Source of the DNA: an uncultured Alphaproteobacteria bacterium
Lineage (GTDB): Bacteria; Pseudomonadota; Alphaproteobacteria; HIMB59; GCA-002718135
Length of the DNA stretch: 64,000 nucleotides
NCBI GenBank assembly: GCA_902524385.1
Contig: CABZCZ010000002.1
Location: 112,541-176,540, forward strand
Direction of reading: 5' to 3'
Positions 21,357 to 42,252 of this stretch are shown piece after piece. Each line of letters starts with the position of its first letter. The first letter of the stretch is position 1. The notes beneath the pieces are model-generated. The model searched no databases and was not told the DNA's origin. It was given only the letters and a program-made list of their open reading frames with translations. A program made the translations under genes and the position numbers.

Positions 21357-21677
21357 ATGAATGATGAAATTGAACCAATTTTAATAGGTGAAGTTGATGA
21401 TATTGATATTGGTTCAGTAGAAAATTTTGAATATGAAGATATAAATTATGCAATTTATAGACTCGAATCTGGCTTTTTTGCAACTGAAGGAAATTGCCCT
21501 TGTGCCGAAAAACCTTTATTAAGTGAATCTAGTATTGAAGGTGAAGAACTAGAGTGCCCATCATGCGGTAATAAATTTAGCATTGTATCTGGAGACTCTC
21601 TCTCTGATTTAGAACAAATTTCATTAAAAATATTTGATATTACAGAAGAAGATGGAAATCTTTACTTAAATATTTAA
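21357..21677 (+). CDS. Rieske-fold ferredoxin (MocE-like) with atypical four-Cys ligand set
   Basis: YAIYR..GFFATEGN-CPC-x17-CPSC-GNKF..SG; acidic, 106 aa. Confidence 0.75.
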   Translation: MNDEIEPILIGEVDDIDIGSVENFEYEDINYAIYRLESGFFATEGNCPCAEKPLLSESSIEGEELECPSCGNKFSIVSGDSLSDLEQISLKIFDITEEDGNLYLNI

Positions 21678-22639
21678 CTTATAATATTATAATTTATTAT
21701 ATTACTTTTATTTAAATTTTTACTTTTAGTTAAAAAATTAAAAACATTTTCACAGGTTTCAGTAGCCATTCTTTTTCTACATTCAAGTGTAAGTGCTGAA
21801 TTGTGAGGTGTTAGCAAAGTGTTTTGTAAAGAAAATAACATATGATTTTCTATTGGAGGTTCAGTTTTAAAAACATCTAATCCAGCAGCGCGAATTTTTT
21901 TATTTTTTAAAGCATCAAATAAAGCATTTTCATTAACGATACCTCCGCGTGCAGTATTTATTAGAATTAAATTCGATTTAAATACTTCAAATTGTTCAAA
22001 AGAAATCAAATCATTTGTTTCTGAGTTTAGTGGCAAATGAATACTTATATAATCTGCAATCATAAATCCACTTTCTTTGTCTGTAGGAATATAATTCATA
22101 GAACGGATTTCATCATCGGAAATAAATGGATCATGAATGTAAATTTCCATATCAAAAGCCATGCATCTTTTAGCTAATTCTTTTCCAATTCTACCAAAAC
22201 CCAAAATAAGTATTTTTTTCTGATATAATTCAAAATAATTAGGAAGATTTGCTTTTTCTTCAAATTTATTAAGTTTAACTAATTTATCAGATTCATAGAT
22301 ATTTTTAGTTAAGCAAAGCATCATTGTCATTACATGCTCAGAAACACTTACAGCATTAGCTGTGCCTGTTATAGCTAAAGCTATTTTGTTGTCATTTAAG
22401 AAATTGTAATCAACGTTATCATAACCAACTCCATGTCTTGCAACAACCTTTAATTTTTTTGCATTTGACAGAACTTTTTTACTTAATTTGACTGTTCTTA
22501 CAACAATTCCATCCACATCAGATAATTCATTCGTAAGTTGATCTTCTTCTTTACTATTAGTAACAAAATATTCTATGTTATTATTTTCAAAGATCTCATA
22601 TCCACAAGTATGAATTTCTCCAACCACACCAACTTTCAT
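21674..22639 (-). CDS. D-isomer-specific 2-hydroxyacid dehydrogenase (SerA-like, no ACT domain)
   Basis: RHGVGYDNVD, GFGRIG, NTARGG, LDVF..EP, TPH. Confidence 0.9.
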   Translation of the reverse strand: MKVGVVGEIHTCGYEIFENNNIEYFVTNSKEEDQLTNELSDVDGIVVRTVKLSKKVLSNAKKLKVVARHGVGYDNVDYNFLNDNKIALAITGTANAVSVSEHVMTMMLCLTKNIYESDKLVKLNKFEEKANLPNYFELYQKKILILGFGRIGKELAKRCMAFDMEIYIHDPFISDDEIRSMNYIPTDKESGFMIADYISIHLPLNSETNDLISFEQFEVFKSNLILINTARGGIVNENALFDALKNKKIRAAGLDVFKTEPPIENHMLFSLQNTLLTPHNSALTLECRKRMATETCENVFNFLTKSKNLNKSNIINYNIIS

Positions 22640-22738
22640 AAAAGATTTATATTCTATAATTATAAAAAAATAAATTGATTAACTCTTTAAATTATTTTTT
22701 TATTATAATAGTATCTATTTTTTTTGCGAAAGGAACCT

Positions 22739-24583
22739 ATGAAAACAGTTAGAATGTCTTGTTCACACGCATTAATTAAATATTTAACTATGCAAAAAAT
22801 TTTAATTAATGGAAAAAAAGAACCACTTTTTCCAGGTGCATTTGGTATTTATGGTCATGGTAATGTAGCTTGTATTGGACAGGCCATGGAAGAATATCAA
22901 AATGAACTTCCAGGATACAGAGGTCATCATGAACAAAACATGGCTTTAACTGGAATAGCATATGCTCGTGCAAAAAGAAGAAAACAAATATTTGTTGCTA
23001 CTTCGTCAGTTGGACCAGGCGCAACTAACATGGTTACCGCAGCAGCAGTTGCATTAAGCAACAGACTTCCAATTTTACTTTTACCAGGTGATACATTTTC
23101 AAGTCGTTTTCCAGACCCTGTTTTACAACAAGTAGAACATTTTAATTCTCCTTCAGAAACTCAGAATGATTCATTTAAATCTGTATCAAGATATTTTGAT
23201 CGAATAACTAGACCTGAACAAATTTTAACTTCTTTACCTCAAGCAATTAATGTGATGCTTGACCCTGCAGATTGTGGTCCTGCAGTAATTTCGATGTCAC
23301 AAGATGTTCAAGGAGAAGCTTTTGATTATCCAGAAATTTTTTTTGAAGAAAAAATTTATCGAATAAGAAGAATTCACCCTGATCCAAATCAAATACAAAA
23401 AGCAGCTGATAAATTAAAAAAATCAAAACAACCTATTATTATTTCTGGAGGAGGTGTTTTATATTCAGAAGCTGAAGAGGAAATTTCTGCTTTTGCAATG
23501 AAACATAATATTCCCGTAACTGCAACTGTAATGGGTATTGGATGTATGAACAAAGATGATCCCTATTATATAAGTGCAATTGGATGTTTAGGAGAAGGCT
23601 CATCTAATAACCTTGCTACAGATACAGATTTAGCACTAGCTGTAGGAACAAAATTAGGAGACTTTACAACTGGCTCTTGGACGAATTTTGAAAATGAAAA
23701 TTTTCAACTTGTATCAATAAATACTTCACGATTTGACACTATAAAACATCGTGCAACTCCTGTTGTAAGTGATGCAAAAATTGGACTTCAAGAATTATCA
23801 AAAGTATTAGGAGATTGGAGAGCGCCTGATAATTGGTACCAGCGATCTATTGAGGAAAGAGATAGATGGGATGAATATGTTGCTAAAGAGAGTGGGCCAA
23901 CAAACCAAGAATTACCGTCCTATGCTCATGCAGTGGGTGCAGTTTATAGAAATTCAGATCCATCAGATATTGTTGTAACTGCAGCTGGAGGCTTAGTTGG
24001 AGAAGTGGTTCAAATATGGAAACCAAAAGAGCTAAATACTTTTGAAACTGAATGGGGATTTAGTTGCATGAGTTATGAAATATCGGGTGCACTTGGAATT
24101 AAAATGGCAAAACCTGATCAAGATGTAATTGTATTTGTAGGAGATGGTTCATACCTATTACAAAACAGCGATATTTATAGTTCTGTTTTGTATGATAAAA
24201 AATTAATAATAGTTGTTTGTGATAATGGTGGTCATATGGTTATTAATAGATTGCAGCTAGCAAAAGGTGGGAATGAATATCTTTGTAATCTCAATGCAGC
24301 CAGAGCTACAAATGTACAGTTTGTAGATTTTGAAGCTCATGCAAAAAGTATGGGGGCAAATGGTGAGACCGTTAAATCCATTTCAGAGTTAGAGGCTGCT
24401 TTTAAAAGAGCAAAAGAATCAGACAAAACCTATCTGATTTCTATGAAAACAGATGGTTATGAATGGTTAGAAGGTACAGCTTTTTGGGAGAGTCCAACAC
24501 TTGAAGTGGATAATACCGAAGGTAAGAAATTAGCTCTTAATGAATTTTTAGAAGGAAAAAATAAACAACGTAAGGGCGTATAA
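22739..24583 (+). CDS. iolD: 3D-(3,5/4)-trihydroxycyclohexane-1,2-dione acylhydrolase (ThDP enzyme)
   Basis: GHGNV, SSVGPGATN, PDPVLQQ, GFSCMSYEI, VGDGSY; start reassigned to ATG 22739. Confidence 0.9.
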   Translation: MKTVRMSCSHALIKYLTMQKILINGKKEPLFPGAFGIYGHGNVACIGQAMEEYQNELPGYRGHHEQNMALTGIAYARAKRRKQIFVATSSVGPGATNMVTAAAVALSNRLPILLLPGDTFSSRFPDPVLQQVEHFNSPSETQNDSFKSVSRYFDRITRPEQILTSLPQAINVMLDPADCGPAVISMSQDVQGEAFDYPEIFFEEKIYRIRRIHPDPNQIQKAADKLKKSKQPIIISGGGVLYSEAEEEISAFAMKHNIPVTATVMGIGCMNKDDPYYISAIGCLGEGSSNNLATDTDLALAVGTKLGDFTTGSWTNFENENFQLVSINTSRFDTIKHRATPVVSDAKIGLQELSKVLGDWRAPDNWYQRSIEERDRWDEYVAKESGPTNQELPSYAHAVGAVYRNSDPSDIVVTAAGGLVGEVVQIWKPKELNTFETEWGFSCMSYEISGALGIKMAKPDQDVIVFVGDGSYLLQNSDIYSSVLYDKKLIIVVCDNGGHMVINRLQLAKGGNEYLCNLNAARATNVQFVDFEAHAKSMGANGETVKSISELEAAFKRAKESDKTYLISMKTDGYEWLEGTAFWESPTLEVDNTEGKKLALNEFLEGKNKQRKGV

Positions 24584-24617
24584 AAATAAATTTCTTTTTC
24601 TAAAATTTAAAAATTGT

Positions 24618-25646
24618 ATGAGTCAAAACAAGCCTATAATTTTATTAGATCCATATCCAAGAACAATGGACCTACTTTTTTCTAAAGAAAATTTAAAATA
24701 CTTAAAAAAAAATTTTAAACTTATTACTGCTCCAAATAAAAATAAAAAAAATTTTTATGAAAAAAATTTACCAAAGGCAGATTATATTTTTGGGCAACCC
24801 AATTTACCTTTATCTTTAATTTCTAAATCTAAAAAACTTAAAGCAATATTTAATGTAGAGAGCAATTTTATGGACAATATGGATTATGATTATTGTTTTA
24901 GAAAAGGAATACATGTATTAGCAACATCTCCTGTTTTTGCTCAACCCGTTGCTGAAATGGCAATGGGACTTACTTTATCAATAGCAAGAAGTATTCATAT
25001 TGCCCACTCAGACTTTATTTTAAAAAAAGAAAGGTATGGAGGAGAAATTAGTCAGAATAATTTTTTAATAAAAAATAAAACATTTGGTTTAATTGGTTTT
25101 GGTGATTTAGCAAAATCACTTACTCCTATACTAAAAGTATTCTCAAATAATATAATCGCTTATGATCCTTGGATTCCTGATAAAGAAATTGAAAAATTGG
25201 ATGTTAAGCCTACCAGTTTAAATTTGTTACTCAAAAATGCTGACATCATTTATGTACTCGCGTCTATTACTTCTTCTAATAAATCTATGATTAATTCTTC
25301 AAAGTTTAAATTAATAAAAGATGGATCAGCGTTTGTATTAATGAGTAGAGCAGCCATAATAAATTTTGATGATTTTTTTAATTTTTTAAAAAATAGAAAT
25401 GTATTTGCTGCTATTGATGTTTTTCCACAAGAACCATTTCCTAAAAATCATAAATTAAGAAAACTCAAAAATGTAATTTTTTCTCCGCATAGGGCTGGTG
25501 CATTAGACAGTGCATTTAAAGAGATGGGTGAATTAGTAATTCAAGATTTAAAACTGATTTCAAAAGGCCTACCTCCTAAATTATGTAAAAAAGCTGAAAG
25601 AGAAACTGTTAAATATTTACGATCGAAACCAGTTGATATTAATTAA
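24618..25646 (+). CDS. D-2-hydroxyacid dehydrogenase family protein
   Basis: GFGDLA, YDPW, DVFPQEP, SPHRAG. Confidence 0.82.
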   Translation: MSQNKPIILLDPYPRTMDLLFSKENLKYLKKNFKLITAPNKNKKNFYEKNLPKADYIFGQPNLPLSLISKSKKLKAIFNVESNFMDNMDYDYCFRKGIHVLATSPVFAQPVAEMAMGLTLSIARSIHIAHSDFILKKERYGGEISQNNFLIKNKTFGLIGFGDLAKSLTPILKVFSNNIIAYDPWIPDKEIEKLDVKPTSLNLLLKNADIIYVLASITSSNKSMINSSKFKLIKDGSAFVLMSRAAIINFDDFFNFLKNRNVFAAIDVFPQEPFPKNHKLRKLKNVIFSPHRAGALDSAFKEMGELVIQDLKLISKGLPPKLCKKAERETVKYLRSKPVDIN

Positions 25647-25667
25647 AATTTATTTAAAAACATAGTT

Positions 25668-26414
25668 ATGTCAGATCAATTAGTACTGGAAGCTAAATCA
25701 GTTTCAAAATTCTTTGGTACTATAACAGCTCTTCAAAATGTAGATCTTCATTTAAATAAAGGTGAGGTTCTAGGTGTCGTTGGCGATAACGGTGCTGGGA
25801 AATCAACATTAATGAAAGTTTTATCAGGATTATACAAGCCAAGTGAAGGGTCTCTTTTTTTTGATAAAGAGAAAGTAACATTAAATAGTCCAAGAGACTC
25901 TCAAAATTTGGGTTTAGAAATGGTCTATCAAGATTTAGCACTTGCTGGGAACCTTCCTATTGGCGATAATATTTTTTTAGGAAGAGAACCAACAAGAAAA
26001 GTTGGCCCTTTCAATTTTTTAGATCATAAAAAAAAAAAACAGTTAACCGAAGAGCATCTTGCAAAACTAAAAATAAACGTAAAGAGTGCTGATCAAAAGG
26101 TTGAAGAATTATCAGGTGGACAAAGACAAGCTGTAGCAATTGCTAGAGCTACAGCTTTTAATGCAAAAATTGTATTGATGGATGAACCAACAGCAGCACT
26201 TGCTGTTAAGGAAGTTGGAAAAGTTTTAGATTTAATTTTAAATCTTAAAAAGTTAGGTGTTAGTGTAATAGTAATTAGCCATCGAATGGATGATATTTTT
26301 ACTGTTTGTGATCGCGTAATGGCACTTTTTCAAGGAACAAATTTTGCTGAATCAGAATTAAAAAAAACTTCAAGAGACGAAGTTATTGGATGGATCATGG
26401 GGAAAAAAGATTAA
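25668..26414 (+). CDS. Monosaccharide ABC ATP-binding protein (single domain)
   Basis: GDNGAGKS, YQDLAL, LSGGQRQ, DEPTAAL. Confidence 0.93.
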   Translation: MSDQLVLEAKSVSKFFGTITALQNVDLHLNKGEVLGVVGDNGAGKSTLMKVLSGLYKPSEGSLFFDKEKVTLNSPRDSQNLGLEMVYQDLALAGNLPIGDNIFLGREPTRKVGPFNFLDHKKKKQLTEEHLAKLKINVKSADQKVEELSGGQRQAVAIARATAFNAKIVLMDEPTAALAVKEVGKVLDLILNLKKLGVSVIVISHRMDDIFTVCDRVMALFQGTNFAESELKKTSRDEVIGWIMGKKD

Positions 26415-27421
26415 TGGATAAGAGTCAAGAATCTTTATTTGTCAGACTAATTCCTTTTTTTGAAAGGTATGGGATCTTATTACTTATCCTAATAATGATT
26501 GCTGTTTTGCATTTGTTACAACCTGATGTGTTTTTATCATGGAGAAATGTAACAAATATTTTTAAACAGGTTTCCTGGCAGTCTATGTTAGCACTTGGTG
26601 TCTTTATGGTCATTGTAACTGCAGGTATAGATTTATCAGTCGGTTCAATTATTATGTTATCATTAATGGGACTAGCTATTGCTTCCAAAGCAGGAATGCC
26701 TTGGTACGTTGTTATGTTAGTTGCACCAGCAATTGGATTTTTGTGTGGTATGTTTAATGGTATTGGCATCACGTTACTTCGAATGCCTCATCCATTCATC
26801 ATGACACTTGGTACTCTATATATATTCAGAGGAATTGGGAATCTAATTTCAGGCGGTGTGCCAATAACAGGATTTGCTGAACAGATAAGAGTTATTGGAA
26901 ATGGTAAAATCAAGCTAGATGCATTTTTTGGAGAAGGGGCAAGAGAATACATACCCACAAGTTTAATTTTGATGATTGTAATATTTTTTATTTTTTGGAT
27001 ATTTTTAAATCATACAAGAATAGGTAAATGGATCTACGCTATTGGAGGTAACCCTGGAGCTGCAAGAGCAGCAGGTATTAATGTAGACCGAATTTTAATC
27101 GTAGTTTACACTCTATGTGGTTTTTTGGCGGGAATTGGAGGTTTAATTTTAGCTGGAAGAACGAATTCTGCTTATCCAAATGCTGGTTTACAATCTGAGT
27201 TAGATGCAATTGCGGCAGTCATAATTGGTGGAGCGAGCTTTTTTGGAGGCAGAGGAACAGTATTAGGCGTGTTTGCTGGAGTTATGATAATGGGTATACT
27301 CCGAAATGGTCTAAATTTGATGAACGTTAGTGTTTTCTGGCAACAAGTTCTGATTGGTTCTATTATTATTTTGGCCGTTTATATTGATGTTTTAAGAAGA
27401 CAACTTGCAACCAGAACATAA
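26414..27421 (+). CDS. Monosaccharide ABC permease (RbsC-like)
   Basis: GIDLSVG, AIGGN..AA, ELDAIAAVIIGG; start reassigned to ATG 26414. Confidence 0.92.
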   Translation: MDKSQESLFVRLIPFFERYGILLLILIMIAVLHLLQPDVFLSWRNVTNIFKQVSWQSMLALGVFMVIVTAGIDLSVGSIIMLSLMGLAIASKAGMPWYVVMLVAPAIGFLCGMFNGIGITLLRMPHPFIMTLGTLYIFRGIGNLISGGVPITGFAEQIRVIGNGKIKLDAFFGEGAREYIPTSLILMIVIFFIFWIFLNHTRIGKWIYAIGGNPGAARAAGINVDRILIVVYTLCGFLAGIGGLILAGRTNSAYPNAGLQSELDAIAAVIIGGASFFGGRGTVLGVFAGVMIMGILRNGLNLMNVSVFWQQVLIGSIIILAVYIDVLRRQLATRT

Positions 27422-27510
27422 TATTAAAAAATAATCACTTTCTGACAAACAGTCTCTTGATTAGATTTTCATTTTTCATTAATGGTTAAAAAAAAAATTT
27501 AGGAGGAAAA

Positions 27511-28428
27511 ATGAAATTTTTTATTTCTATAATTACTACTTCAGTATTGTTTTTTTCAGGTAGCCTTCTAGCAGGCTCACACGCTAAAACAATAATGTTA
27601 AGTACCAAAGGACCAGGTGCTGGAAACCCATTTTGGGCTTCAGTAGAAGCTGGTGCTAAAGATGCTGCTGAAGAATTAGGTGTTAACCTAATTATCCTAT
27701 CACCACCACAAGAGAGTGATGTTATGGCTCAGGTGGCGCAAATTGAAGACCAAATAGCAAAAGGTGTAGACGGTATTGCGATTGCACCAACTGACCCTAA
27801 TGCAGTTGCACCAATTCTTGATGATGCAATGGCTTCTGGTGTTCCAGTTGTATACATTGATACTAATGGAATTAATGAAGGTGTAACTTTCATTGGAACT
27901 AATAATATTAATGGTGCTGCTTTAGCCGCTCAATACATCTGTGATAACGTTCCAAGTGGCTCTGATGTTGCAATTCTTCAAGGAATGATAACTCAAACTA
28001 CTGGTCAGCACAGAGCTGAAGGATCTCATAAAGGTCTTGAAGCATGTGGCATGAACATTGTTGCTGAACTTCCAGCTAACTGGGATACCGCACAAGGTAT
28101 GTCAGTAACTGAAGATATCTTAACTGGTAACCCCAATCTAAAAGCAATCTTTGCTTCTAATGATAATATGGGTCTAGGCGCTATCCAAGCATTAAAAAAT
28201 GCTGATATGCTAGATGATGTTTTGGTTGTTGGATTTGATGCTAACCCTGATGCTGCTGCAAGTGTAATGGCTGGTGAAATGTCAGCTACTATTGCTCAGT
28301 TCTCATACAACATGGGATATATGGGTGTAGAAAATGCACTTAAATTAGCTAATGGTGAAAGCATTCCAGATAACATTGATACTGGAACTGTGTTAGTAAC
28401 TAAAGAAAATGCTGCTGACTTTATGTAA
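27511..28428 (+). CDS. Sugar/polyol ABC substrate-binding protein (RbsB-like)
   Basis: Signal peptide, NPFW, ANW, ASNDNM, VGFD; AGGAGG SD. Confidence 0.92.
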   Translation: MKFFISIITTSVLFFSGSLLAGSHAKTIMLSTKGPGAGNPFWASVEAGAKDAAEELGVNLIILSPPQESDVMAQVAQIEDQIAKGVDGIAIAPTDPNAVAPILDDAMASGVPVVYIDTNGINEGVTFIGTNNINGAALAAQYICDNVPSGSDVAILQGMITQTTGQHRAEGSHKGLEACGMNIVAELPANWDTAQGMSVTEDILTGNPNLKAIFASNDNMGLGAIQALKNADMLDDVLVVGFDANPDAAASVMAGEMSATIAQFSYNMGYMGVENALKLANGESIPDNIDTGTVLVTKENAADFM

Positions 28429-28449
28429 GTCATCAAGACTATTTAAATT

Positions 28450-28543: not shown

Positions 28544-29497
28544 ATGAAAAAATTTATTTTAATTATAGCTTCGGCTGTAAGTTTATTAACTTTTTCTTTC
28601 TCAGCAAATGCACTTAAAGTAGGTGCTCTATATCTTGATACTGCTGGTTTTTTTGGTGAGATTAAATATGGTATAGAAAAAGCTGGGGAAGAAGAAGGTA
28701 TCGAGCTAACTGGAGCGAATTCTCAAAGTGATGTAGCAAGGGAAGCTGAATTTATCGATACGCTTTTAGCAACTGGCGTTGATGTTGTAATAATGTCACC
28801 AGTTTCAACTGATTCTTCTGTTGCAGCTGTTGAAAGACTTGCAGAAGCAGGTGTTCCAGTTGTATGCTATAATACATGTTTAAATGATGAAGATGCTAAA
28901 AGACTCGCTTATGCACTTGTTACTACAAGTCAAAGAGAGTTGGGTTATCCAGTTGGTGTTATTGCTGGAAACTGGGCAATCAAAGCTGGTATTGATTTAA
29001 AAATTGGTATTCATAATTGTAATAGATACGAAGCTTGTCAGGAAAGAGAAGATGGTTTTATAGATGGACTAAATTCTACAGGTGTAAATTTTGAAGTTAT
29101 CAATAACCAAGAAGCCTTTGCAAATGATGTTGCAACTCAAGTTGGTACAGACATGCTTATTGCAAACCCTGAAATTAACCTAATGTATGCTGCTAATGAA
29201 GGTGGGACAATTGGTGCCGTTAATGCTGTTCTGGCAGCAGGACAAATTGGTCAAACATACGTAATGGGAACTGATGCAACTGCAGAATTAATGAATTTTG
29301 TAAGTGATGGAGAAATTCTATTAGCTGTTAATTCACAATTCCCAAGAGATATGGGAGCAGGTGCAATGAGAGCTGCACTAAAAGCAGTTAAAGGTGAGGC
29401 TATCGACGAATATGTTCAATTAACACCTACTAAAGTATTTACTTCTATAGACAAAATAGCCATTGATACATGGTTGTCTGAAAGAGGATACGACTAA
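28544..29497 (+). CDS. Sugar ABC substrate-binding protein (RbsB-like)
   Basis: Signal peptide ending ANA, GVPVVCYN, AANEGG; AGGAGG SD. Confidence 0.9.
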   Translation: MKKFILIIASAVSLLTFSFSANALKVGALYLDTAGFFGEIKYGIEKAGEEEGIELTGANSQSDVAREAEFIDTLLATGVDVVIMSPVSTDSSVAAVERLAEAGVPVVCYNTCLNDEDAKRLAYALVTTSQRELGYPVGVIAGNWAIKAGIDLKIGIHNCNRYEACQEREDGFIDGLNSTGVNFEVINNQEAFANDVATQVGTDMLIANPEINLMYAANEGGTIGAVNAVLAAGQIGQTYVMGTDATAELMNFVSDGEILLAVNSQFPRDMGAGAMRAALKAVKGEAIDEYVQLTPTKVFTSIDKIAIDTWLSERGYD

Positions 29498-29507
29498 CTA
29501 TTTTTTT

Positions 29508-29534
29508 AAGGGGTATCTAAAGATACCCCTTTTT
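29508..29534 (+). terminator. Hairpin between binding protein and permease
   Basis: AAGGGGTATC-TAAA-GATACCCCTT followed by T-run. Confidence 0.72.
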
Positions 29535-29537
29535 CTT

Positions 29538-33084: not shown

Positions 33085-33130
33085 AAATATTGTTTATTTT
33101 TTTTTAATAAAAATTATATATATAAAATAT

Positions 33131-34220: not shown

Positions 34221-35369
34221 ATGAAAAATATTGGATTGATTGGCTGTGGTAATATTGCAGAAACATATTTTAGAGCAAAAGAATATTTTAATAACATAAA
34301 TTTTGTAGCTTGTGCTGATATCAATCTAGATGCAGCTAAAAAAACAGCTGAGCAGTACAAAATTGCAGCTTTATCCGTGGATGAAATATTTAATGATAAA
34401 AATGTAGACATTATTCTTAACCTCACAATTCCTCAAGCGCACTATGAAATATCGAAAAGAGCTCTTGAGTCAAACAAACATGTTTATTGTGAAAAACCAA
34501 TGAGTGTTAAATTTGATGATGCAAAAGAATTACTAAATTTAGCAAAAAAAAATAGCTTATATATTGGCAATGCCCCTGATACTTTTTTAGGAGGAGGAGG
34601 GCAGCTTACACGAAATTTAATTGATAATAATGATATTGGACAAGTTCTAACAGGTAATTTTATATTTGCCTTTCCGGGTGTTCAAGATTTTCATCCAAGT
34701 CCTGAGTCTTGGTTTCAAGAAGGGGGAGGGCCTGTAATAGACATGGGTCCATATTTTTTTACAACACTGGTTAATCTTCTAGGCCCTGTTAAAAATATAA
34801 GAGGTAGAGGAGCAAAATTTTTTGACAAAAGAGAATACAAAGCTGGTCCAAAAAAAGGAGAAACCTTTAATGTGGAAATTCCAACTTCGTACATGTTTAA
34901 TATTGAATTTCAAAGTAAAGCAATTGTCCAGGGTTTCATTTCATTTGATGTTTTAAATCATAAACGTAATCATATGGAGCTTTATGGTACTATGGGTTCA
35001 ATTGTTGTCCCTGACCCAAATATGTTTGGTGGTCCAGTATCTATTTCTGGGGAGTTTGGATCTGAATGGAAAAATATAAGTGTCGAAGATAAGCCTCTTG
35101 GAAAGACAAATATCGTCAATCATAGTGGAAGAAGTAATGAGGCACCAGAACAAGCAAATTATAGAGGTATTGGACTAGCTGAAATGATTGATGCGATTGA
35201 AAACAATAGAATGCATAGATGTAATGGAGAGTTGGCTCTTCATGTTATTGATGTAATTGAATGTGCCATGATTTCATCAATTTATAAAGTAGAAGTAGAA
35301 CTCAGATCTTCTTGTGTGAGGCCAGAGCCAATGCATGATGATTTCGTGAGGCAAATCCTAAAAAAATAA
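34221..35369 (+). CDS. Gfo/Idh/MocA family oxidoreductase
   Basis: IGCGNI, HVYCEKP, APDTFLG, DMGPY. Confidence 0.88.
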   Translation: MKNIGLIGCGNIAETYFRAKEYFNNINFVACADINLDAAKKTAEQYKIAALSVDEIFNDKNVDIILNLTIPQAHYEISKRALESNKHVYCEKPMSVKFDDAKELLNLAKKNSLYIGNAPDTFLGGGGQLTRNLIDNNDIGQVLTGNFIFAFPGVQDFHPSPESWFQEGGGPVIDMGPYFFTTLVNLLGPVKNIRGRGAKFFDKREYKAGPKKGETFNVEIPTSYMFNIEFQSKAIVQGFISFDVLNHKRNHMELYGTMGSIVVPDPNMFGGPVSISGEFGSEWKNISVEDKPLGKTNIVNHSGRSNEAPEQANYRGIGLAEMIDAIENNRMHRCNGELALHVIDVIECAMISSIYKVEVELRSSCVRPEPMHDDFVRQILKK

Positions 35370-35484
35370 TAATAAATTTTACCTTTTGTTCATTAGTGCG
35401 ATAATTTTACGTTTAAATTCACAATATTTCTGCTTGTTTTACAAATCTATTCTTGCTAGGGAAACATAAAAATAGGAGGAATGC

Positions 35485-36450
35485 ATGAAAAAATTTGCTT
35501 CAATTATTTTAGCTTCAGTAGCTCTTTTCGCTACTTCAGCAAAAGCAGAATATAAATTTAACTTTGTTATGCATAGTGACACAAACAACGCTTTTTGGGC
35601 AGCAGTTCATAAAGGTTTTAAAGATGCTTGTGCACAAATTAATGCAGATTGCCAAATGTTAACTCTATCAGGTGATGGAGATCAACAGGAGCAATTACAA
35701 AACTTAGAATCTTCAATCGCTCAAGGTGTTGATGGTATTGTAACTACAATTACAAATCCAACAATTTTTGATGCCGCTGTTGACGAAGCTTTAGCAGCTG
35801 GTATTCCAGTTATTACTGCTAATACAGATGACCCAGAAGGTGCTGCAGGTAGTAATAGACTTGCATACGTTGGTCAAGATTTGGAAGCAGCAGGTTATGA
35901 ACTTGCAGCAACTTTATCTAAACAATTTCCTGATGGACCAGTACATGTTCTTATAGGTGTGGCAGACATGAACCAATCATGGGCCTACACAAGAGCTAAC
36001 GGTATTGCAAGATTTATGGATGACTATAAAGCTGCAAATCCAGATAGAGAAGTGACTTATGAAAAAATCGAATCTGGAATGGATCTATCAACTGTAGGAA
36101 ACAGAGTAGCTTCATATGTTCAAACTAATCCAAATACTACTGCATATTTTGATGTAGGATTTTGGGAAGCAGGAGCAGCTCAAGGTATCAGAAATCTTGG
36201 TTATGAGCCTGGTCAAATGCTGCTTGCGGGATTTGACTTAGTTGACGTGGTATTTGAAGAAATGGAAAAAGGTTATGTTCAACTAACCGTTGACCAACAG
36301 CCATACTATCAAGGTTATATGTCAGTTCACCAACTATACTTAATGAACAAGTATGGTTTAAGTGCACTTGATATCAACACTGGTAAGGCAATGATTGGTC
36401 CGGATGATGTTGCCCAAATCCGTTCTTTCAAAGGAATGTCAGTTAGATAA
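35485..36450 (+). CDS. Sugar/cyclitol ABC substrate-binding protein
   Basis: Signal peptide ending SAKA, FW..V..G, YVGQD, GFD, DQQPYYQGY; AGGAGG SD. Confidence 0.9.
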   Translation: MKKFASIILASVALFATSAKAEYKFNFVMHSDTNNAFWAAVHKGFKDACAQINADCQMLTLSGDGDQQEQLQNLESSIAQGVDGIVTTITNPTIFDAAVDEALAAGIPVITANTDDPEGAAGSNRLAYVGQDLEAAGYELAATLSKQFPDGPVHVLIGVADMNQSWAYTRANGIARFMDDYKAANPDREVTYEKIESGMDLSTVGNRVASYVQTNPNTTAYFDVGFWEAGAAQGIRNLGYEPGQMLLAGFDLVDVVFEEMEKGYVQLTVDQQPYYQGYMSVHQLYLMNKYGLSALDINTGKAMIGPDDVAQIRSFKGMSVR

Positions 36451-36462
36451 CAAAAACAATGT

Positions 36463-36494
36463 AAAGCCGGATAAAATTTATCCGGCTTTTTTTT
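36463..36494 (+). terminator. Hairpin / terminator after binding-protein gene
   Basis: AAAGCCGGATAAA / TTTATCCGGCTTT followed by T-run. Confidence 0.82.
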
Positions 36495-36508
36495 AAGTAA
36501 GAAATTAT

Positions 36509-37546
36509 ATGAAAAGTAACAGATTAAAATCAATATTGATGCGTCCAGAAATAAGTACGTTCATAATGTTTGTAGTAATTATGACTGCATTCTTTATTGC
36601 AAATGATAAGTTTCTTAGCCCTAGAAATATTCGAATAGTTATGGGAATAACACCTGAGTATATCATCGTTGCTATTGGTATCGCTATACTAATGATCTCT
36701 GGTGAATTTGACTTATCAGTTGGATCTGTTTTTGCACTCGTACCTATGACAATGGTTCAATTAGTACATCAAGGCATTCCACCATGGTTTGCTATAGCAC
36801 TGGGATTATCAATTGGTATTGCTGTTGGTTTTGTAAATGGTTTTATAACGATCAGATTTGGGATACCCTCCTTTATAGCCACTTTAGGTATGTTATACAT
36901 TGCTAGAAGTTTAACTACTGTTGCAACAGGCGGATTTCCTCCACCATTCCCTCACTCATTACCAAATGAACTTTTTGTGTTTCAATTTGAAGTTTTTAGA
37001 GCATCACTATTTTGGATGCTTGGAGTAGCATTTATTGCTGGCATAATGCTACATAGAAGTAACCTTGGAAATTGGATTTATTCTACAGGCGGTGATACGC
37101 CCGCAGCATCATCAATGGGAATAAAGACTAATAATGTAAAAATGTTTTGTTTTATACTTTGTGGATTTTTAGCAGGCTTTGCAGGAATGATTCAAACTTT
37201 CAGAATCGAAGCCCCTTTACCTTCTCAGGGATATCTTCTTGAATTAGAGTCTATCGCTGCAGCAGTAATTGGAGGGGTCAGCTTATTTGGTGGAGTTGGA
37301 ACAATATTCGGAGCTGCAATCGGAGCAATACTTATTCGCTTTCTTGAAAGTGGAATTATAATGGCGAGAATTGATGCCGAATGGTTCAGAGCAGGACTAG
37401 GATCTTTAATTATCATCTCCGTTGTATTTAATACTTGGGTTGTAAGAAGAGGTGAAAATATGGTTCATAAAAACCAAGCTGAAGAAAATGAAATTGACTC
37501 CAAGAAAAATACTCAGAAAAGTGAAGGAGAAACTAATGAGCAGTGA
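36509..37546 (+). CDS. Monosaccharide/cyclitol ABC permease
   Basis: GEFDLSVG, IPSFIATLG, ELESIAAAVIGG. Confidence 0.92.
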   Translation: MKSNRLKSILMRPEISTFIMFVVIMTAFFIANDKFLSPRNIRIVMGITPEYIIVAIGIAILMISGEFDLSVGSVFALVPMTMVQLVHQGIPPWFAIALGLSIGIAVGFVNGFITIRFGIPSFIATLGMLYIARSLTTVATGGFPPPFPHSLPNELFVFQFEVFRASLFWMLGVAFIAGIMLHRSNLGNWIYSTGGDTPAASSMGIKTNNVKMFCFILCGFLAGFAGMIQTFRIEAPLPSQGYLLELESIAAAVIGGVSLFGGVGTIFGAAIGAILIRFLESGIIMARIDAEWFRAGLGSLIIISVVFNTWVVRRGENMVHKNQAEENEIDSKKNTQKSEGETNEQ

Positions 37547-38279
37547 GAATATTATTGAATGCCAAGATCTTAATAAATATTACTCTGGAGTTCATGCTCT
37601 TAAAAATCTCAGTTTAAAAATAAAAAAAGATACGGTTGTTGGTTTAATTGGTGATAACGGTGCTGGGAAATCAACATTAATTAAAATTCTATCCGGTGCT
37701 CATGCACCTGACTCTGGCCACATTTACTTTGAAGGAAATGAAGTGAAATTTAAGTCTACTAAAGAAGCGATGAACTTAGGAATAGAAACTATCTATCAAT
37801 ATTCTGCATTAATTCCACAGATGTCTATTGCACGAAATATTTTTATAGGAAGAGAGCAGACAACTTTTTCACTTGGATCAATTGGTTTAATGAAATCTAA
37901 ATCAATGGATAAAGCTGCGATGGAAGCGTTAAATGATGTTGAACTTCATTTAAGGTCTCCTGAAACACCTGTAAACCAACTCTCAGGAGGAGAAAGACAA
38001 GGTGTTGTAATTGCAAGAGCTATGTATTTTAAATCAAAAGTTTTAATCTTGGATGAACCAACAAACCATTTATCAGTTAAAGAAACAAATAAAGTTCTTC
38101 GGTTTGTTGAAGGATTAAAAAAACAAGGTGTAACATCGATATTTATTACTCACAACTTGAGTCACGTCTATCCTATAGCAGATCATTTGTGTGTTATGGC
38201 AAGGGGTGAAAAGATTGCTGATTTAGCAAAAGTGGATACAAACATTGATGAGTTAACTGATCTATTGGTAAATGGATAA
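37536..38279 (+). CDS. Monosaccharide ABC ATP-binding protein (single domain)
   Basis: GDNGAGKS, LSGGERQ, DEPT; start reassigned to ATG 37536 after AAGGAG. Confidence 0.92.
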   Translation: MSSENIIECQDLNKYYSGVHALKNLSLKIKKDTVVGLIGDNGAGKSTLIKILSGAHAPDSGHIYFEGNEVKFKSTKEAMNLGIETIYQYSALIPQMSIARNIFIGREQTTFSLGSIGLMKSKSMDKAAMEALNDVELHLRSPETPVNQLSGGERQGVVIARAMYFKSKVLILDEPTNHLSVKETNKVLRFVEGLKKQGVTSIFITHNLSHVYPIADHLCVMARGEKIADLAKVDTNIDELTDLLVNG

Positions 38280-38317
38280 ATATTGTTTAAGATCACTTAT
38301 AAATATGGGGGCGATTA

Positions 38318-39253
38318 ATGATTAGTAAAACACAAATAGAGCAATATAATGAAGAGGGATATACAATAGTTGAAGATGTATTTAGTATGGATGAATTAAA
38401 TCCAATATTAAATGAGTTTGAGGAAATCGTTGAAGATTTTGCAGACAAAGCTTTTAAAGCAGAAAAAATTTCAAATAAACATGAGGATAAAGATGTTTTC
38501 AAAAGATTGGCAGCTCTTGAGAAAGATTTTAAAGGATCATCTGTTTTAATTCATCATAGAGGAGAACTTAAACCTGCACTCGCAAATTTATGGGGATCAA
38601 AAAAACTTTTAGACATTGTTGAGAATTGGGTAGGAAAAGATATCTCAGGCCACCCTGTTTGGAACATTAGATCAAAAACTCCACAAACTGCAAGAATGAC
38701 AGTTCCTTGGCATCAAGACTCAGCTTACTTAAAAGAAGGTGCTGAAAAAACGACTCAACCAGCTGCCTGGATTCCTTTTCTAGATGTAAATAAGGAAAAT
38801 GGATGCATGCAGGTACTTCCTGGAGGACATAGACCAGAAAGAGTATTGAACCACAAACTTGAAAAAAAAGATGGTTCAGTAAAAGACTCTTGGTATTTGT
38901 TTATTGAAGAAAAAGATATTGCTGAGGAAAAAATAGTTACCTGTGATATGAAGGCTGGTTCTGTTTTATTTCTTCACCAATTAGTTCCGCATAGATCACT
39001 TGAAAATTTATCTGATTCCGTAAGATGGAGTGTTGATTTAAGATTTCAAAATCCAAAAGATGAAGCTGGATTTCATACTGGTTTAGTTGACCCAATCATA
39101 ATGAGAAAATCTGATGATACCAATTATACAGCTGACTGGAATTCTTGGTTTGAAGGATACGAAGAACAACATACAAAATTTAGAGGCACTTCTAAAAAAG
39201 ATCAGTTTGATTCTAGCGTTGATGGAAGCTGGCTTGAACGTTGGGATAATTAG
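38318..39253 (+). CDS. PhyH-family Fe(II)/2-oxoglutarate dioxygenase
   Basis: WHQD (HxD), ENGCM..PGGH, VPHRS..N...RWS.DLRF. Confidence 0.88.
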   Translation: MISKTQIEQYNEEGYTIVEDVFSMDELNPILNEFEEIVEDFADKAFKAEKISNKHEDKDVFKRLAALEKDFKGSSVLIHHRGELKPALANLWGSKKLLDIVENWVGKDISGHPVWNIRSKTPQTARMTVPWHQDSAYLKEGAEKTTQPAAWIPFLDVNKENGCMQVLPGGHRPERVLNHKLEKKDGSVKDSWYLFIEEKDIAEEKIVTCDMKAGSVLFLHQLVPHRSLENLSDSVRWSVDLRFQNPKDEAGFHTGLVDPIIMRKSDDTNYTADWNSWFEGYEEQHTKFRGTSKKDQFDSSVDGSWLERWDN

Positions 39254-39267
39254 ACTAAATAATAAAA

Positions 39268-40251
39268 ATGCACGTAAATTTAGAAGATTGGTACAAACCA
39301 GAACTAGATAAAAGGGTTTTAAAAAATTTATCAAAAAGAAAAGACCTACCTGGTCTAATACATTTCTTTTTTTACTTTTTATCTTTAATTGTCTCGGGTT
39401 ATCTTGCTTACATAACTCTAGGTACTTGGTGGACGTACTTATTCTTCTTTATATATGGAACAATTTATGCGTTCAGTGTAGCTAACTGGCATGAAACTGT
39501 TCACCGAACTGCATTCAAAACAAGATGGATAAATGAAATTTTTTATCACATTAGTTCTTTCATGTGTGATTTTGAAGGTTTCCGATGGAGATGGAGTCAT
39601 ACATTTCACCATTCCAAAACTCTTCAAACTGAGGATGATTATGATCATGAAATTCAAGTTTCAAGACCTGTGGAGTTGTTAGCATTCTTTTTAAATTTTA
39701 TTCCACTAACTGATTTACTTTATCCACATAAACTTATTAAGTACGAAGTTTTAAAACATGCCTTTGGAAAATTTTCACCAGTTATTGATATTACTGCCCC
39801 TAAAGAAGAAAAGAAAAAAATATTATGGAACTCAAGATTATATGTTTTGATATGGGTAATAGTAATTGCTTATTCTTTTTATATTGGTTCCATCTTACCA
39901 ATTGTATATATTATTTTACCAACATATATTGGTAAACCAATCTGGTTTGCTGTTAATGTAACACAACATTTAGCAGCTAAAGTTGATACAAAGGATCATC
40001 GCTTAAGCACTTATTCAGTAAGAATAAATCCTATTTTAAGTTTTTTGTACTGGCATATGGAATATCATCTAGAACATCATATGTATCCAATGGTTCCTTC
40101 GTATAATTTAAAAAAACTTCGTAAAGAAATTGACTCAGAACTTCCTAAACCCTTTAATAGCCTTTTTGATTTTTATAGAAAAGTTTTACCTTCGGTAATA
40201 GCTTTAGCAACTAATCCAGATAAATATTATAAAGTGAAACTTAATAATTAG
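39268..40251 (+). CDS. MocD-like membrane di-iron oxygenase (copy 3)
   Basis: His boxes HETVH, HTFHH, HLEHH; closest to copy 1. Confidence 0.85.
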   Translation: MHVNLEDWYKPELDKRVLKNLSKRKDLPGLIHFFFYFLSLIVSGYLAYITLGTWWTYLFFFIYGTIYAFSVANWHETVHRTAFKTRWINEIFYHISSFMCDFEGFRWRWSHTFHHSKTLQTEDDYDHEIQVSRPVELLAFFLNFIPLTDLLYPHKLIKYEVLKHAFGKFSPVIDITAPKEEKKKILWNSRLYVLIWVIVIAYSFYIGSILPIVYIILPTYIGKPIWFAVNVTQHLAAKVDTKDHRLSTYSVRINPILSFLYWHMEYHLEHHMYPMVPSYNLKKLRKEIDSELPKPFNSLFDFYRKVLPSVIALATNPDKYYKVKLNN

Positions 40252-40253
40252 AT

Positions 40254-40679
40254 TTACCAAGTTCCCAAATTTTCCATAGATTTCCATGGTTCCTGAACTG
40301 GAAGTGCTGCACCCTCTTGTAAAATTTCTAAAGATATTCCATCAGGTGAACGCACAAAAGCCATATGTCCATCACGCGGTGGTCTATTTATAGTGACACC
40401 ATTATTCATCAACTTTTCACATACCTCATAAATATTTTTGACACTGTAAGCAAGATGACCAAAGTTTCTTCCGCTAGTATATTCTTCTGGATCCCAATTA
40501 TATGTTAATTCGAGTAGTCCTGTTTTTTCATCACTGTTTTCTGCACCTAGAAATATAAGAGTAAAGCGTCCTTTTTCATTATCTACTCTTCTAACTTCTT
40601 TTAAATCCAACTTATTGCAATAAAAGTCTAGTGACTCATCAATATTGTTAACTCTAACCATAGTATGTAAATATTTCAT
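40254..40679 (-). CDS. gloA: Lactoylglutathione lyase (glyoxalase I)
   Basis: YLHTMVRV, LELTYNWD, FGHLA, FVRSPDG..LE. Confidence 0.9.
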   Translation of the reverse strand: MKYLHTMVRVNNIDESLDFYCNKLDLKEVRRVDNEKGRFTLIFLGAENSDEKTGLLELTYNWDPEEYTSGRNFGHLAYSVKNIYEVCEKLMNNGVTINRPPRDGHMAFVRSPDGISLEILQEGAALPVQEPWKSMENLGTW

Positions 40680-40740
40680 TTTTATAATCCTGTATAATTT
40701 TGTATTTGTACTACAAAATACATAGTATAATTTAAATTAT

Positions 40741-42252
40741 ATGAAAACTGTTTTTTTACTTTTTGATTCATTAAACAAAAGAATGTTAAATTCTTATGGT
40801 GGAAAATATATTGAAACACCAAATTTTAATAGATTAGCAAAAAAATCGGTTCAATTTAATAATCATTATATAGGAAGCATGCCTTGTATGCCTGCCAGAC
40901 GTGATATGCATTCAGGACGGCTAAGCTTCCTTCATCGAGCATGGGGACCTTTAGAACCATTTGATAATTCATTTCCAGAAATGTTAAGAATTAATAATAC
41001 GTATACTCACCTAGTAACTGATCACTATCATTACTTTGAAGATGGTGGAGCAACTTATCATAATAGGTTTAATTCATGGGACTTTATTCGAGGACAAGAG
41101 AGCGATCCTTGGAAAGCAATGGTTCAGCCTCCACTTGAAAAATTGAGAGAAAAATATCACAAATCGCAATTCAATTTAAGTGATAGGGAGGGAAAATATT
41201 ATAACTATGTAATAAATAGTGAATTTATAAAAGATGAGAAAGATTTTCCATCAGTGAAATGTTTTCAATCTGGATTAGATTTTTTAAATATAAATAAAAA
41301 TACTGATAATTGGTTTCTACAATTAGAGACTTTTGATCCACATGAACCCTTTTTCGCTCCTGAAAGATTCAGAGAAAAACTTAAGACAAATTATAGAGGG
41401 CCAAGATTAGATTGGCCTCAATATGATAAAGTAAGGGAAAATGATGAAGAGGTTGCTGAATTAAAAGCAAATTATTTAGCCCTTATAGGATTATGTGATT
41501 ATTTGTTAGGAACAGTATTAGATTTTTTTGATTCAAATAATCTCTGGCAAAATACAGCATTAATTTTAACTACAGATCATGGTTTTATGCTAGGCGAGCA
41601 TGATTGGTGGGCAAAAAACAGGATGCCGTTGTATAATGAGATAGCAAATATTCCGCTTTATTTTTCTCATCCTGATTTCAAAAAGTATAATGGCGAAAAA
41701 AGAAATGTCGTTACTCAAAATATTGATTTAATGCCAACCTTTATGATAATGCACGGTCATAAAATCCCAAAAGAAGTAAAAGGAAAATCGATTGTAAATT
41801 TTTTAGATAAAGATAATGAAAGAGATTATTGTGCATTATATGGATATTGGGGTGGAGGAATTAATATTTCAGATGGGAAATATACATATTTTCATTATCC
41901 AGAAAATTTTAATCAATATGACAGAAGTAGGTACCAATACACGTTAATGCCTACAAATATGAGACAATTTTTTTCAAATGAAGAATTGCAAACAGCAACT
42001 ATGCACAAACCATTTAACTTCACTAAAAATATTCCAGTAATGAAGGTAAATAAAATATTAAGGAAGACTGATTCCCTTGCGACTTTAATTGATACAAAAA
42101 GCGCCCTTTATGACTTGAAAGAAGATCCAGGACAATTAAATCAATTACATGATAATGATCTAATTGCTCGATATAAAGATCTCATGTTTAAAGAAATAAA
42201 ATTATATGATCCTCCTAAAGAATTATTGGAAAACTATTTTAATCTGGAATAA
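40741..42252 (+). CDS. Cys-type (formylglycine) sulfatase, no signal peptide
   Basis: FDS at N-terminus, CMPAR (CxPxR), DPHEP, TTDHG..GEH..K. Confidence 0.9.
   Translation: MKTVFLLFDSLNKRMLNSYGGKYIETPNFNRLAKKSVQFNNHYIGSMPCMPARRDMHSGRLSFLHRAWGPLEPFDNSFPEMLRINNTYTHLVTDHYHYFEDGGATYHNRFNSWDFIRGQESDPWKAMVQPPLEKLREKYHKSQFNLSDREGKYYNYVINSEFIKDEKDFPSVKCFQSGLDFLNINKNTDNWFLQLETFDPHEPFFAPERFREKLKTNYRGPRLDWPQYDKVRENDEEVAELKANYLALIGLCDYLLGTVLDFFDSNNLWQNTALILTTDHGFMLGEHDWWAKNRMPLYNEIANIPLYFSHPDFKKYNGEKRNVVTQNIDLMPTFMIMHGHKIPKEVKGKSIVNFLDKDNERDYCALYGYWGGGINISDGKYTYFHYPENFNQYDRSRYQYTLMPTNMRQFFSNEELQTATMHKPFNFTKNIPVMKVNKILRKTDSLATLIDTKSALYDLKEDPGQLNQLHDNDLIARYKDLMFKEIKLYDPPKELLENYFNLE

Follow-up and report, generated by a model that had tools for sequence, protein, structure and literature searches.

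MocD-type oxygenases, candidate O-demethylases, in a flexible sugar- and cyclitol-utilisation island of a marine alphaproteobacterium

Rhizopine is an O-methyl compound and the only substrate that has been genetically linked to the oxygenase MocD and its partners MocE and MocF. The mocDEF genes are rhizopine-inducible and needed for rhizopine catabolism (PMC10107442); the functions of their products have been called 'putative', and in Pseudomonas syringae the genes lie just upstream of a second xylA (PMC5132102; papers with a PMC accession are cited here and below from the parts of their text that were available). Here we describe an island of sugar-import and oxidation genes with three MocD-type oxygenases, termed DES1, DES2 and DES3. 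It lies in the window, by which we mean the whole analysed stretch of 64,000 nucleotides on contig C2 of an uncultured, streamlined marine alphaproteobacterium.

Relatives from soil bacteria show the following arrangements. On pSymA of Sinorhizobium meliloti T073 (L091, 8280-14424), MocR is transcribed divergently from MocD, MocE, MocF, a PanB-like gene and PurU; this is a true moc locus by NCBI models (MocR, 763.9 bits against a cut-off of 650; MocE, 183.7 against 136.15; PurU, 327.4 against 285.95). We found no mention of a PanB-like gene and PurU at the end of a moc operon in the literature searched. Rhizobium bangladeshense carries a LacI regulator, a desaturase-family protein, a MocE-family ferredoxin, a flavin adenine dinucleotide oxidoreductase and a gene annotated as '3-methyl-2-oxobutanoate hydroxymethyltransferase'. 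Oxygenase, ferredoxin and reductase of Aminobacter are encoded near a thiamine pyrophosphate enzyme and a Gfo/Idh/MocA gene.

Methylated and deoxy sugars recur in semi-labile marine dissolved organic matter. For the enzymology of marine sugar-methoxy removal, the literature searched, in the parts available, yielded only the P450 system of algal-polysaccharide-degrading Bacteroidota, in which a P450, a ferredoxin and a ferredoxin reductase demethylate 6-O-methyl-D-galactose with release of formaldehyde (PMC6292453, PMC9400963, PMC10033563). We found no report of a desaturase-family sugar O-demethylase working with a Rieske ferredoxin, nor of the oxygenase expansion described below, in a literature search that did not cover subscription journals. 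The available main text of a comparative genomics study of the clade (PMC10308909) says nothing of desaturases, inositol, fucose or sulfatases.

Six paralogous oxygenases and their importers

The assembly (1.43 Mb, 80% complete; G+C of the window ~30%) contains seven PF00487 genes, three of which fall within 9 kb of the window. Six of the seven are mutual paralogues with 42-53% identity: three in the window (45-53% pairwise), two on contig C4 and one on contig C5. Judged by their sequences, these six are MocD-type oxygenases and not lipid desaturases. The window copies stand between importers and oxidative enzymes as follows (coordinates within the window, strand in brackets).

25668-28428 (+): ABC1, an ATP-binding cassette (ABC) importer with ATPase, permease and a ribose-binding-protein-like substrate-binding protein, without an oxygenase of its own (Pfam)
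28544-31270 (+): ABC2, an importer with binding protein, permease and ATPase, which opens variable module B (Pfam)
31292-32263 (+): DES1, MocD-type membrane di-iron oxygenase (PF00487, tree)
32260-33084 (-): PanB-like enzyme, not PanB (Pfam Pantoate_transf)
33131-34159 (+): DES2, MocD-type oxygenase, which closes module B (PF00487, tree)
34221-35369 (+): GFO, a Gfo/Idh/MocA-family NAD(P) sugar or cyclitol dehydrogenase, which opens the stable core module (Pfam)
35485-38279 (+): ABC3, an importer with binding protein, permease and ATPase (Pfam)
38318-39253 (+): PhyH-family Fe(II)/2-oxoglutarate dioxygenase (Pfam)
39268-40251 (+): DES3, MocD-type oxygenase (PF00487, tree, structure model)

Intergenic gaps in the island are tight (15-62 nt); DES1 starts 22 nt past the ABC2 ATPase, and PhyH lies 15 nt upstream of DES3.

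The family motif comprises three histidine boxes, HX3-4H, HX2-3HH and HX2-3HH. DES1-DES3 matched PF00487 with 110.9-117.9 bits (gathering cut-off 29.7), and the box residues H75/H79, H111/H114/H115 and H267/H270/H271 (DES3 numbering) were invariant in the six paralogues and in a 25-row alignment. In a hydropathy scan, all six showed hydrophobic segments around residues 30-60, and five showed them around residues 195-240 as well. None of the window copies reached a lipid-desaturase equivalog of NCBIfam (DesB, 38.1-45.3 bits against 500; CrtR, 24.9-27.1 against 475), a collection without a model for MocD itself, and matches in the protein Atlas were confined to 'fatty acid desaturase domain' clusters. 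Translated searches of plasmids (tblastn) gave 389 records, none of which reached 60% identity; the best matched over the full length at 37-41% and came mostly from Rhizobium, Ralstonia and Sinorhizobium; identity to the rhizobial proteins was 37-42%, again over the full length.

In a maximum-likelihood tree, rooted at the midpoint and with the seventh desaturase of the genome as single outgroup, the six paralogues and four divergent copies from relatives formed one clade (support 100/99), nested with MocD-type proteins of Aminobacter, Rhizobium, Sinorhizobium and Caballeronia. The seventh desaturase (contig C1, 144051-145070) was very distant, on a branch of length 7.56. It has no NCBIfam match at 1e-6 and may be the cell's real lipid-modifying enzyme.

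An AlphaFold model of DES3 (pLDDT 88.3, pTM 0.87) found its best solved enzyme match in AlkB (8sbb_A; TMq 0.53, E 1.7e-3). A second AlkB structure (8f6t) gave a TMq of 0.46, and stearoyl-CoA desaturase (SCD1) one of 0.35, so that the predicted fold is closer to AlkB than to stearoyl-CoA desaturase. A sequence search of the PDB with DES3 gave no match at E up to 1.

In a survey of 60 other genomes of the same family (DES called at E <=1e-30), 57 carried the oxygenase, with a median of five copies and a range of 0-7. Across the class, 30 of 250 other genomes (at least 85% complete) matched DES at 1e-30 and only nine fell below E 1e-75; a single genome, of 4.8 Mb, held more copies (eight).

A preliminary description of the region, made from the window alone, had proposed a cytoplasmic toolkit that removes O-methyl and sulfate groups from imported sugars or cyclitols. 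All the genes it named were recovered at their positions as open reading frames with Pfam and NCBIfam matches, and its three MocD-like di-iron oxygenases do group with MocD-type proteins in the tree. It would have given up the idea had they clustered with lipid desaturases; the C1 desaturase is distant, and no equivalog cut-off was reached. The association of oxygenases and importers that it pointed out also extends beyond the window, each close paralogue adjoining an ABC sugar importer.

All six paralogues adjoin CUT2 or CUT1 ABC genes; on contig C4 the order is DES, aldehyde dehydrogenase, CUT2 ABC, ThuA, GFO, DES and CUT1 ABC. The three importers of the window each combine a Peripla_BP_4 binding protein, a BPD_transp_2 permease and an ABC_tran ATPase (CUT2-type), and their binding proteins have signal-peptide-like N-termini. 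The ABC1 binding protein matched the E. coli ribose-binding protein with 158.6 bits. Against the model of the rhizopine-catabolism binding protein the three scored 58.7-99.5 bits (cut-off 420), the highest value belonging to ABC3, for which this is the best named relative. The genome has no full-length match to MocR, and this, together with the low binding-protein scores, marks the genes as MocD-type and not as a rhizopine system. Classical CUT2 ATPases are fused doubles, and those of the window (25668-26414, 30530-31270 and 37452-38279) have a single nucleotide-binding domain in 246-275 aa. The GTG start listed for the third ATPase lies 95 nt inside the permease gene; the true start is probably further downstream.

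Associations of the oxygenases with importers, PhyH and PanB-like genes recur in unrelated Proteobacteria, which supports the preliminary description. Caballeronia carries DES-MocE-MocF with an ABC3-like transporter (binding protein 45%, permease 48% and ATPase 58% identical). In an unrelated genome (G203), CUT2-type genes occur at six of eight DES loci and PanB-like genes at two of the eight; one locus there (L112) combines PhyH (45%), an ABC3-like importer (binding protein 42%, ATPase 65%) and DES. In a genome of the same order (G088), a PanB-like gene adjoins the single DES. The clustering exceeds chance: three of seven PF00487 genes lie within 9 kb, importers stand at all six paralogues and the core order recurs in relatives. 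Because the oxygenases constantly keep company with importers and sugar-oxidising enzymes, their substrates would be imported polar compounds.

Electron partners and one-carbon handling

The paralogue on contig C5 opens an operon that continues with a Pyr_redox_2/Reductase_C reductase, a MocE-family Rieske ferredoxin and a PanB-like gene, followed by an SMP-30 lactonase, an SDR protein, two enolase-superfamily dehydratases, a DHDPS-family aldolase and an IlvD/Edd dehydratase; a divergently oriented CUT2 importer adjoins the operon. The ferredoxin exceeds the MocE cut-off (137.0 against 136.15). The MocF-like reductase is HcaD-like (298 bits, below the equivalog cut-off of 450) and is 26-31% identical to the reductases of four plasmid operons. 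Both are the only ones of their kind in the genome. MocE was found in 48 of the 57 DES-bearing family genomes and in none of the three without DES, never in more than one copy, while DES reaches up to seven. Since the partnership with a Rieske ferredoxin and a reductase is conserved, the DES proteins are probably monooxygenases.

A complex prediction for DES3 and MocE scored 0.51, against 0.00 for the best of three controls; its runs agreed in at least 85% of contacts and the partner pLDDT was at least 84. In the benchmark of this procedure, the mark was reached by 58 of 80 solved complexes and by 2 of 110 mismatched pairs, and among scores of 0.60 or less that reached it were only 7 of the 80 solved complexes, plus both mismatches that passed.

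The window itself encodes a different protein of this fold:

21357-21677 (+): all-cysteine Rieske-fold protein (Pfam, ligand alignment)

The preliminary description had taken it for a MocE-like ferredoxin, an assignment that did not hold. Rieske centres have the ligands CxH...CxxH, and this protein has C47xC49...C67xxC70 (CPC...CPSC), its cysteines aligning to C-T-H...C-P-M-H of MocE. It scores 34.3 against the MocE cut-off of 136.15, is 30% identical to MocE and matches the Pfam fold with 24.8 against 20.3; the real MocE and MocF are encoded on C5. In an alignment of 12 marine homologues (down to 68% identity), C47 and C67 were invariant and C49 and C70 present in at least 90% of rows, and a protein collection held 749 homologues at E <=0.001. 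The gene is single-copy in 49 of the 60 family genomes, and occurs in one DES-less genome and in seven of the nine DES-bearing genomes in which MocE was not found. Possible identities are a natural all-cysteine Rieske-fold ferredoxin and a zinc protein. In the window the gene directly follows that of a lactate-type dehydrogenase dependent on flavin mononucleotide (FMN), and the protein could be an alternative electron carrier or the partner of that upstream dehydrogenase; the data speak neither for nor against a role as ferredoxin of the DES system.

PanB moves a hydroxymethyl unit between methylene-tetrahydrofolate and a carbon acid. The PanB-like protein of the window matches Pantoate_transf with 137 bits (Pfam) and stays under the cut-offs for PanB proper (109.4 against 207.55, TIGR00222; 123.7 against 272, NF001452). 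Four PanB-like paralogues of the genome and two members of rhizobial operons scored 65-133 bits against the same two cut-offs, a comparison that excludes a fifth, weaker match on C2 (17163-17948). The matches of the window protein, of both copies on C5 and of the rhizobial proteins begin only at profile position ~65-120 of 259-267, and the copy on contig C3 matches NF001452 from position 3. Family genomes hold 0-6 PanB-like copies, and their number correlates with that of DES (Spearman 0.68; relatives are not independent, so that the value is descriptive only).

PanB-like genes come after MocDEF in both R. bangladeshense and S. meliloti, with PurU next in the latter. This pair, closing a true moc operon, ties the reaction to folate-bound one-carbon (C1) units; with a C1 unit entering the folate pool, O-demethylation becomes the best reading, in which a methoxy group, once hydroxylated, departs at the oxidation level of formaldehyde. 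The genome encodes a formate-tetrahydrofolate ligase (FTHFS). FolD was not found in the 80% complete assembly, which we read as incompleteness because it is present in all 12 genomes of the genus that were sampled. With FTHFS and FolD in the lineage, and no glutathione or ribulose monophosphate (RuMP) formaldehyde route found, a folate sink is plausible.

The idea that a PanB-like gene always accompanies an oxygenase was dropped, since the C3 copy follows a GH4 glycosidase gene and has no DES nearby. On the strand opposite this pair, C3 28104-39465 (L093) holds a CUT1 ABC importer, a class II fructose-bisphosphate aldolase, a second PhyH, two Gfo/Idh/MocA genes, an aldo-keto reductase and a sugar-isomerase TIM barrel. 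It resembles a cluster for the oxidative processing of glycosides that lacks a di-iron oxygenase.

Mosaic structure of the island

The span is a flexible sugar- and cyclitol-utilisation island of a streamlined low-G+C marine alphaproteobacterium, built from swappable importer and oxidative-tailoring modules. Besides the genes given above, it comprises the following.

16150-21296 (+): two enolase-superfamily sugar-acid dehydratases, an SDR protein, a FAH-family hydrolase and an FMN-dependent alpha-hydroxyacid (lactate) dehydrogenase (Pfam)
21674-22639 (-): D-2-hydroxyacid dehydrogenase (Pfam)
22724-24583 (+): IolD, 3D-(3,5/4)-trihydroxycyclohexane-1,2-dione acylhydrolase (TIGR04377)
24618-25646 (+): second D-2-hydroxyacid dehydrogenase, beside ABC1 in relatives too (Pfam)
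40254-40679 (-): glyoxalase I-like protein, near GloA (113.8 bits, cut-off 120)
40741-42252 (+): Cys-type S1 sulfatase without signal peptide (PF00884, motif)
42323-43636 (+): XylA, xylose isomerase, at the end of the island (655.2 bits against 533.25)

After XylA come ribF, ileS and lspA. No RNA family was detected in the window (Rfam, gathering thresholds).

We compared 76 related loci, in 60 of which a DES3 orthologue was at least 75% identical; the counts below are restricted to contigs that reach far enough to decide. PhyH adjoins DES3 in 52 of 57 loci, all three ABC3 genes are present in 47 of 54, GFO in 47 of 52 and the glyoxalase in 52 of 54. GFO-ABC3-PhyH-DES3 is thus a stable core module, with PhyH as the constant partner of DES3. 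Upstream of GFO, the block ABC2-DES1-PanB-like-DES2 occurs in only 9 of 43 loci, and in 33 of the 43 the ABC1 binding protein directly abuts GFO. Downstream of the glyoxalase, the 44 loci whose sequence extends for 9 kb or more had the sulfatase only (22), XylA only (12), both (5) or neither (5). In more distant relatives (L065, L070 and L085), MocE and MocF lie inside the DES/PhyH/PanB-like cluster. The region is a mosaic of modules gained and lost among close relatives, and not one co-inherited system; the single co-occurring toolkit of the preliminary description gave way when co-occurrence was checked in relatives, where the modules vary independently.

The glyoxalase I-like protein is probably a housekeeping gene that marks the edge of a hypervariable insertion site. 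An alternative insert at this hot spot (L015, 11469-19894) carries a GHL6 putative glycosidase, a CUT1 ABC importer, a 130-aa open reading frame, a PhyH dioxygenase, a Gfo/Idh/MocA gene and ThuA.

The sulfatase, placed in the same toolkit by the preliminary description, belongs to a separate block in relatives. It matches PF00884 with 91.2 bits against 25 and has the motif C-M-P-A-R; no signal peptide is present, as the protein begins at the catalytic domain. It reaches no named equivalog in NCBIfam (PehA, 125.5 against 900), and the genome encodes a single FGE-sulfatase maturation enzyme, on contig C9. At the 22 sulfatase-only loci, the sulfatase lies ~8.3 kb from DES3. One annotated locus of this kind (L022, 11505-20823) has two permeases along with a CUT1 binding protein, and four signal-less sulfatases in a row, which looks like an import and cytoplasmic desulfation module for an imported sulfated compound; from their identical spacing, the other 21 probably carry the same insert. 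Its counterpart in the window is the 40679/40741 junction, where only the last of the four sulfatases stands, a remnant of a separate, partly lost import-and-desulfate block. The only oxygenase-sulfatase link seen outside the family was in an unrelated alphaproteobacterium (L110; G119 contig C92, 7589-14700), where MocE and two tandem DES genes lie ~4 kb from a sulfatase 48% identical to that of the window.

An inositol route, also said to be adjacent, was found only in part. IolD is indeed in the window (765.1 bits against 715, TIGR04377). IolE, above its cut-off (377 against 290), is on C4, and the IolC-like (289.4 against 300) and IolB-like (165.6 against 205) proteins, both just under theirs, are on contig C15.

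Upstream, the 16150-21296 genes reach no named equivalog cut-off (NCBIfam). By analogy they appear to match the lower half of a non-phosphorylative 6-deoxyhexose pathway (fucose/rhamnose-type), which we take to be their role. Between a CUT1 importer and these dehydratases, an RraA-like aldolase, two MaoC-type hydratases, an SBP_bac_8 binding protein and a family III CoA-transferase (12155-16153) read as an acyl-CoA-linked step in the sugar island.

Proposed reaction, alternatives and known systems

The best reading, which we hold with moderate confidence, is that the MocD-type oxygenases O-demethylate imported methylated sugars or cyclitols. We infer electron sharing, the reaction, the role of the PanB-like enzyme and the substrates as parts of one scheme. 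The oxygenases would be fed by a single, shared pair of proteins from another contig, an NADH-dependent, MocF-like reductase and a Rieske ferredoxin of the MocE family. Working at the cytoplasmic face of the membrane, each paralogue would hydroxylate the O-methyl group of its own imported methylated sugar or cyclitol, and the hemiacetal would collapse to the free sugar and a C1 unit at the formaldehyde level. The PanB-like enzyme may then pass this unit to tetrahydrofolate, for oxidation by FolD and formate-tetrahydrofolate ligase, and the unblocked sugar would enter Gfo/Idh/MocA-, IolD-, XylA- or deoxyhexose-type routes.

Several findings weigh against O-demethylation. No demonstrated reaction for this oxygenase clade was found in the literature, in the parts available, where the role of MocDEF is called 'putative'. 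The prediction of the DES3-MocE complex lends only weak support, and MocE was not found in 9 of the 57 DES-bearing genomes (67-91% complete). The window binding proteins match only generic sugar, ribose and allose binders among solved structures (91-159 bits). PurU adjoins in one of four plasmid loci and in none of 15 distant genomic loci. The third PanB-like paralogue, on C3, stands beside a GH4 glycosidase with no oxygenase nearby, so PanB-like proteins may act on sugar keto-intermediates and not on C1 units. In the 80% complete genome we found no glutathione-dependent formaldehyde dehydrogenase, S-formylglutathione hydrolase, RuMP synthase or PurU. Finally, the pairing of DES and aldehyde dehydrogenase on C4 also fits stepwise oxidation of a C-methyl group.

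That last point leads to an alternative we consider unlikely, in which the DES proteins hydroxylate unactivated C-H bonds (the C6 methyl of fucose, rhamnose or quinovose, or C-methyl and deoxy-cyclitols) without C1 release, dehydrogenases acting next. The nearest solved enzyme fold is that of the terminal-methyl hydroxylase AlkB, the C4 pairs DES-aldehyde dehydrogenase and GFO-DES resemble an order of hydroxylase, alcohol dehydrogenase and aldehyde dehydrogenase, and deoxyhexose-type catabolic genes flank both the window island and the C5 operon. The PanB-like gene and PurU of the true moc operon, however, point to C1 release, and the genome already has a route for deoxyhexose degradation without hydroxylation. 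Rhizopine, too, carries an O-methyl group.

Distinctly less probable are substrates other than sugars, namely imported methylated or aminated cyclitols or small polar osmolytes (inosamine- or rhizopine-like, or N-methyl compounds). The score of the ABC3 binding protein, 99.5 bits, makes the rhizopine-catabolism protein its best named relative but is far under 420, and MocR was not found in the genome. IolD in the window, IolE above its cut-off elsewhere and the IolC- and IolB-like proteins just under theirs would favour this reading, as would the family member GntB (40.8 bits), which according to its NCBIfam description hydroxylates free arginine. The flanking genes, by contrast, are sugar-acid dehydratases, lactonase, aldolase, XylA, ThuA and GH4.

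The mosaic structure invites the view that the site is merely an insertion hot spot for unrelated genes, with DES, PhyH, PanB-like genes and importers sharing no pathway. Blocks are indeed present, absent or swapped at the same site among close relatives, and the states of sulfatase and XylA vary freely over the 44 loci. We nevertheless judge this very improbable: DES recurs with an ABC3-like importer in Caballeronia and with PhyH and an ABC3-like importer in G203, in different gene orders; DES with a PanB-like gene recurs in Rhizobium, Sinorhizobium, G088 and G203; and the intergenic gaps are tight (15-62 nt).

That the DES proteins are lipid desaturases or hydroxylases remodelling membrane lipids, unrelated to their neighbours, is hardly credible: they belong to PF00487 and are automatically named 'fatty acid desaturase' in public sources and the Atlas, but they reach no lipid-desaturase equivalog (DesB, 38-45 bits against 500), fall among MocD-type proteins at a great distance from the seventh desaturase, occur in up to seven copies in a ~1.5 Mb genome, each adjoining an importer, and depend on a Rieske ferredoxin operon.

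Building on O-demethylation, we put forward tentatively, as a doubtful but consequential idea, that the lineage radiated a MocD-type oxygenase into a panel of substrate-specific O-demethylases, served by one ferredoxin and reductase, for the methylated sugars and cyclitols of algal polysaccharides and marine dissolved organic matter, and that the PanB-like protein is an enzyme not recognised before, which hands the C1 unit straight to tetrahydrofolate. FolD and formate-tetrahydrofolate ligase would oxidise the methoxy carbon to yield energy, and no toxic formaldehyde would be set free; oligotrophic oceans would then have a folate-coupled route of methyl-sugar demethylation that needs no P450. 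Were the oxygenases demethylases, an abundant oligotroph lineage would carry up to seven of them in ~1.5 Mb, and a poorly understood step of ocean carbon turnover would acquire a concrete gene set. The long-putative MocD family would gain a general biochemical role and the PanB-like family, now annotated as a pantothenate enzyme, a function; module gain and loss would explain niche differences between strains.

Set beside known systems, the PanB-like proteins share with PanB their match to Pfam Pantoate_transf and differ in that all stay under the PanB cut-offs, with most matches starting late in the profile. AlkG is a rubredoxin. Enzymes of the AlkB/XylM type have the fold and the histidine-box di-iron site in common with DES; the AlkB-AlkG complex (8f6t) uses AlkG as donor, whereas here the donor would be a Rieske ferredoxin, and the gene context points to water-soluble sugars and not to hydrocarbons.

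The P450 demethylase of marine Bacteroidota is likewise a three-component monooxygenase that takes an O-methyl group off an algal sugar monomer and yields formaldehyde that needs handling, as proposed here. Its catalyst is unrelated to the membrane di-iron protein of our lineage, and no PF00067 match to a cytochrome P450 was found in the 80% complete genome. The C1 unit would pass here through folate and the PanB-like enzyme, whereas the Bacteroidota detoxify formaldehyde.

MocDEF remains the nearest system. The oxygenases are homologous and of the same clade (37-42% identity over the full length), a MocE-family ferredoxin and an HcaD-like reductase share an operon with one paralogue (C5), a PanB-like gene comes after in both, and CUT2-type binding proteins and Gfo/Idh/MocA dehydrogenases are neighbours in both. 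The P. syringae arrangement of mocDEF and xylA also parallels that of DES3 and XylA in the window. The present system departs from MocDEF in lacking a detectable MocR, in binding proteins far under the rhizopine cut-off and in the constant partnership of PhyH with DES3. Above all, it has six paralogues (up to seven in relatives) with a single ferredoxin and reductase encoded elsewhere, in a host that is marine, free-living and streamlined.

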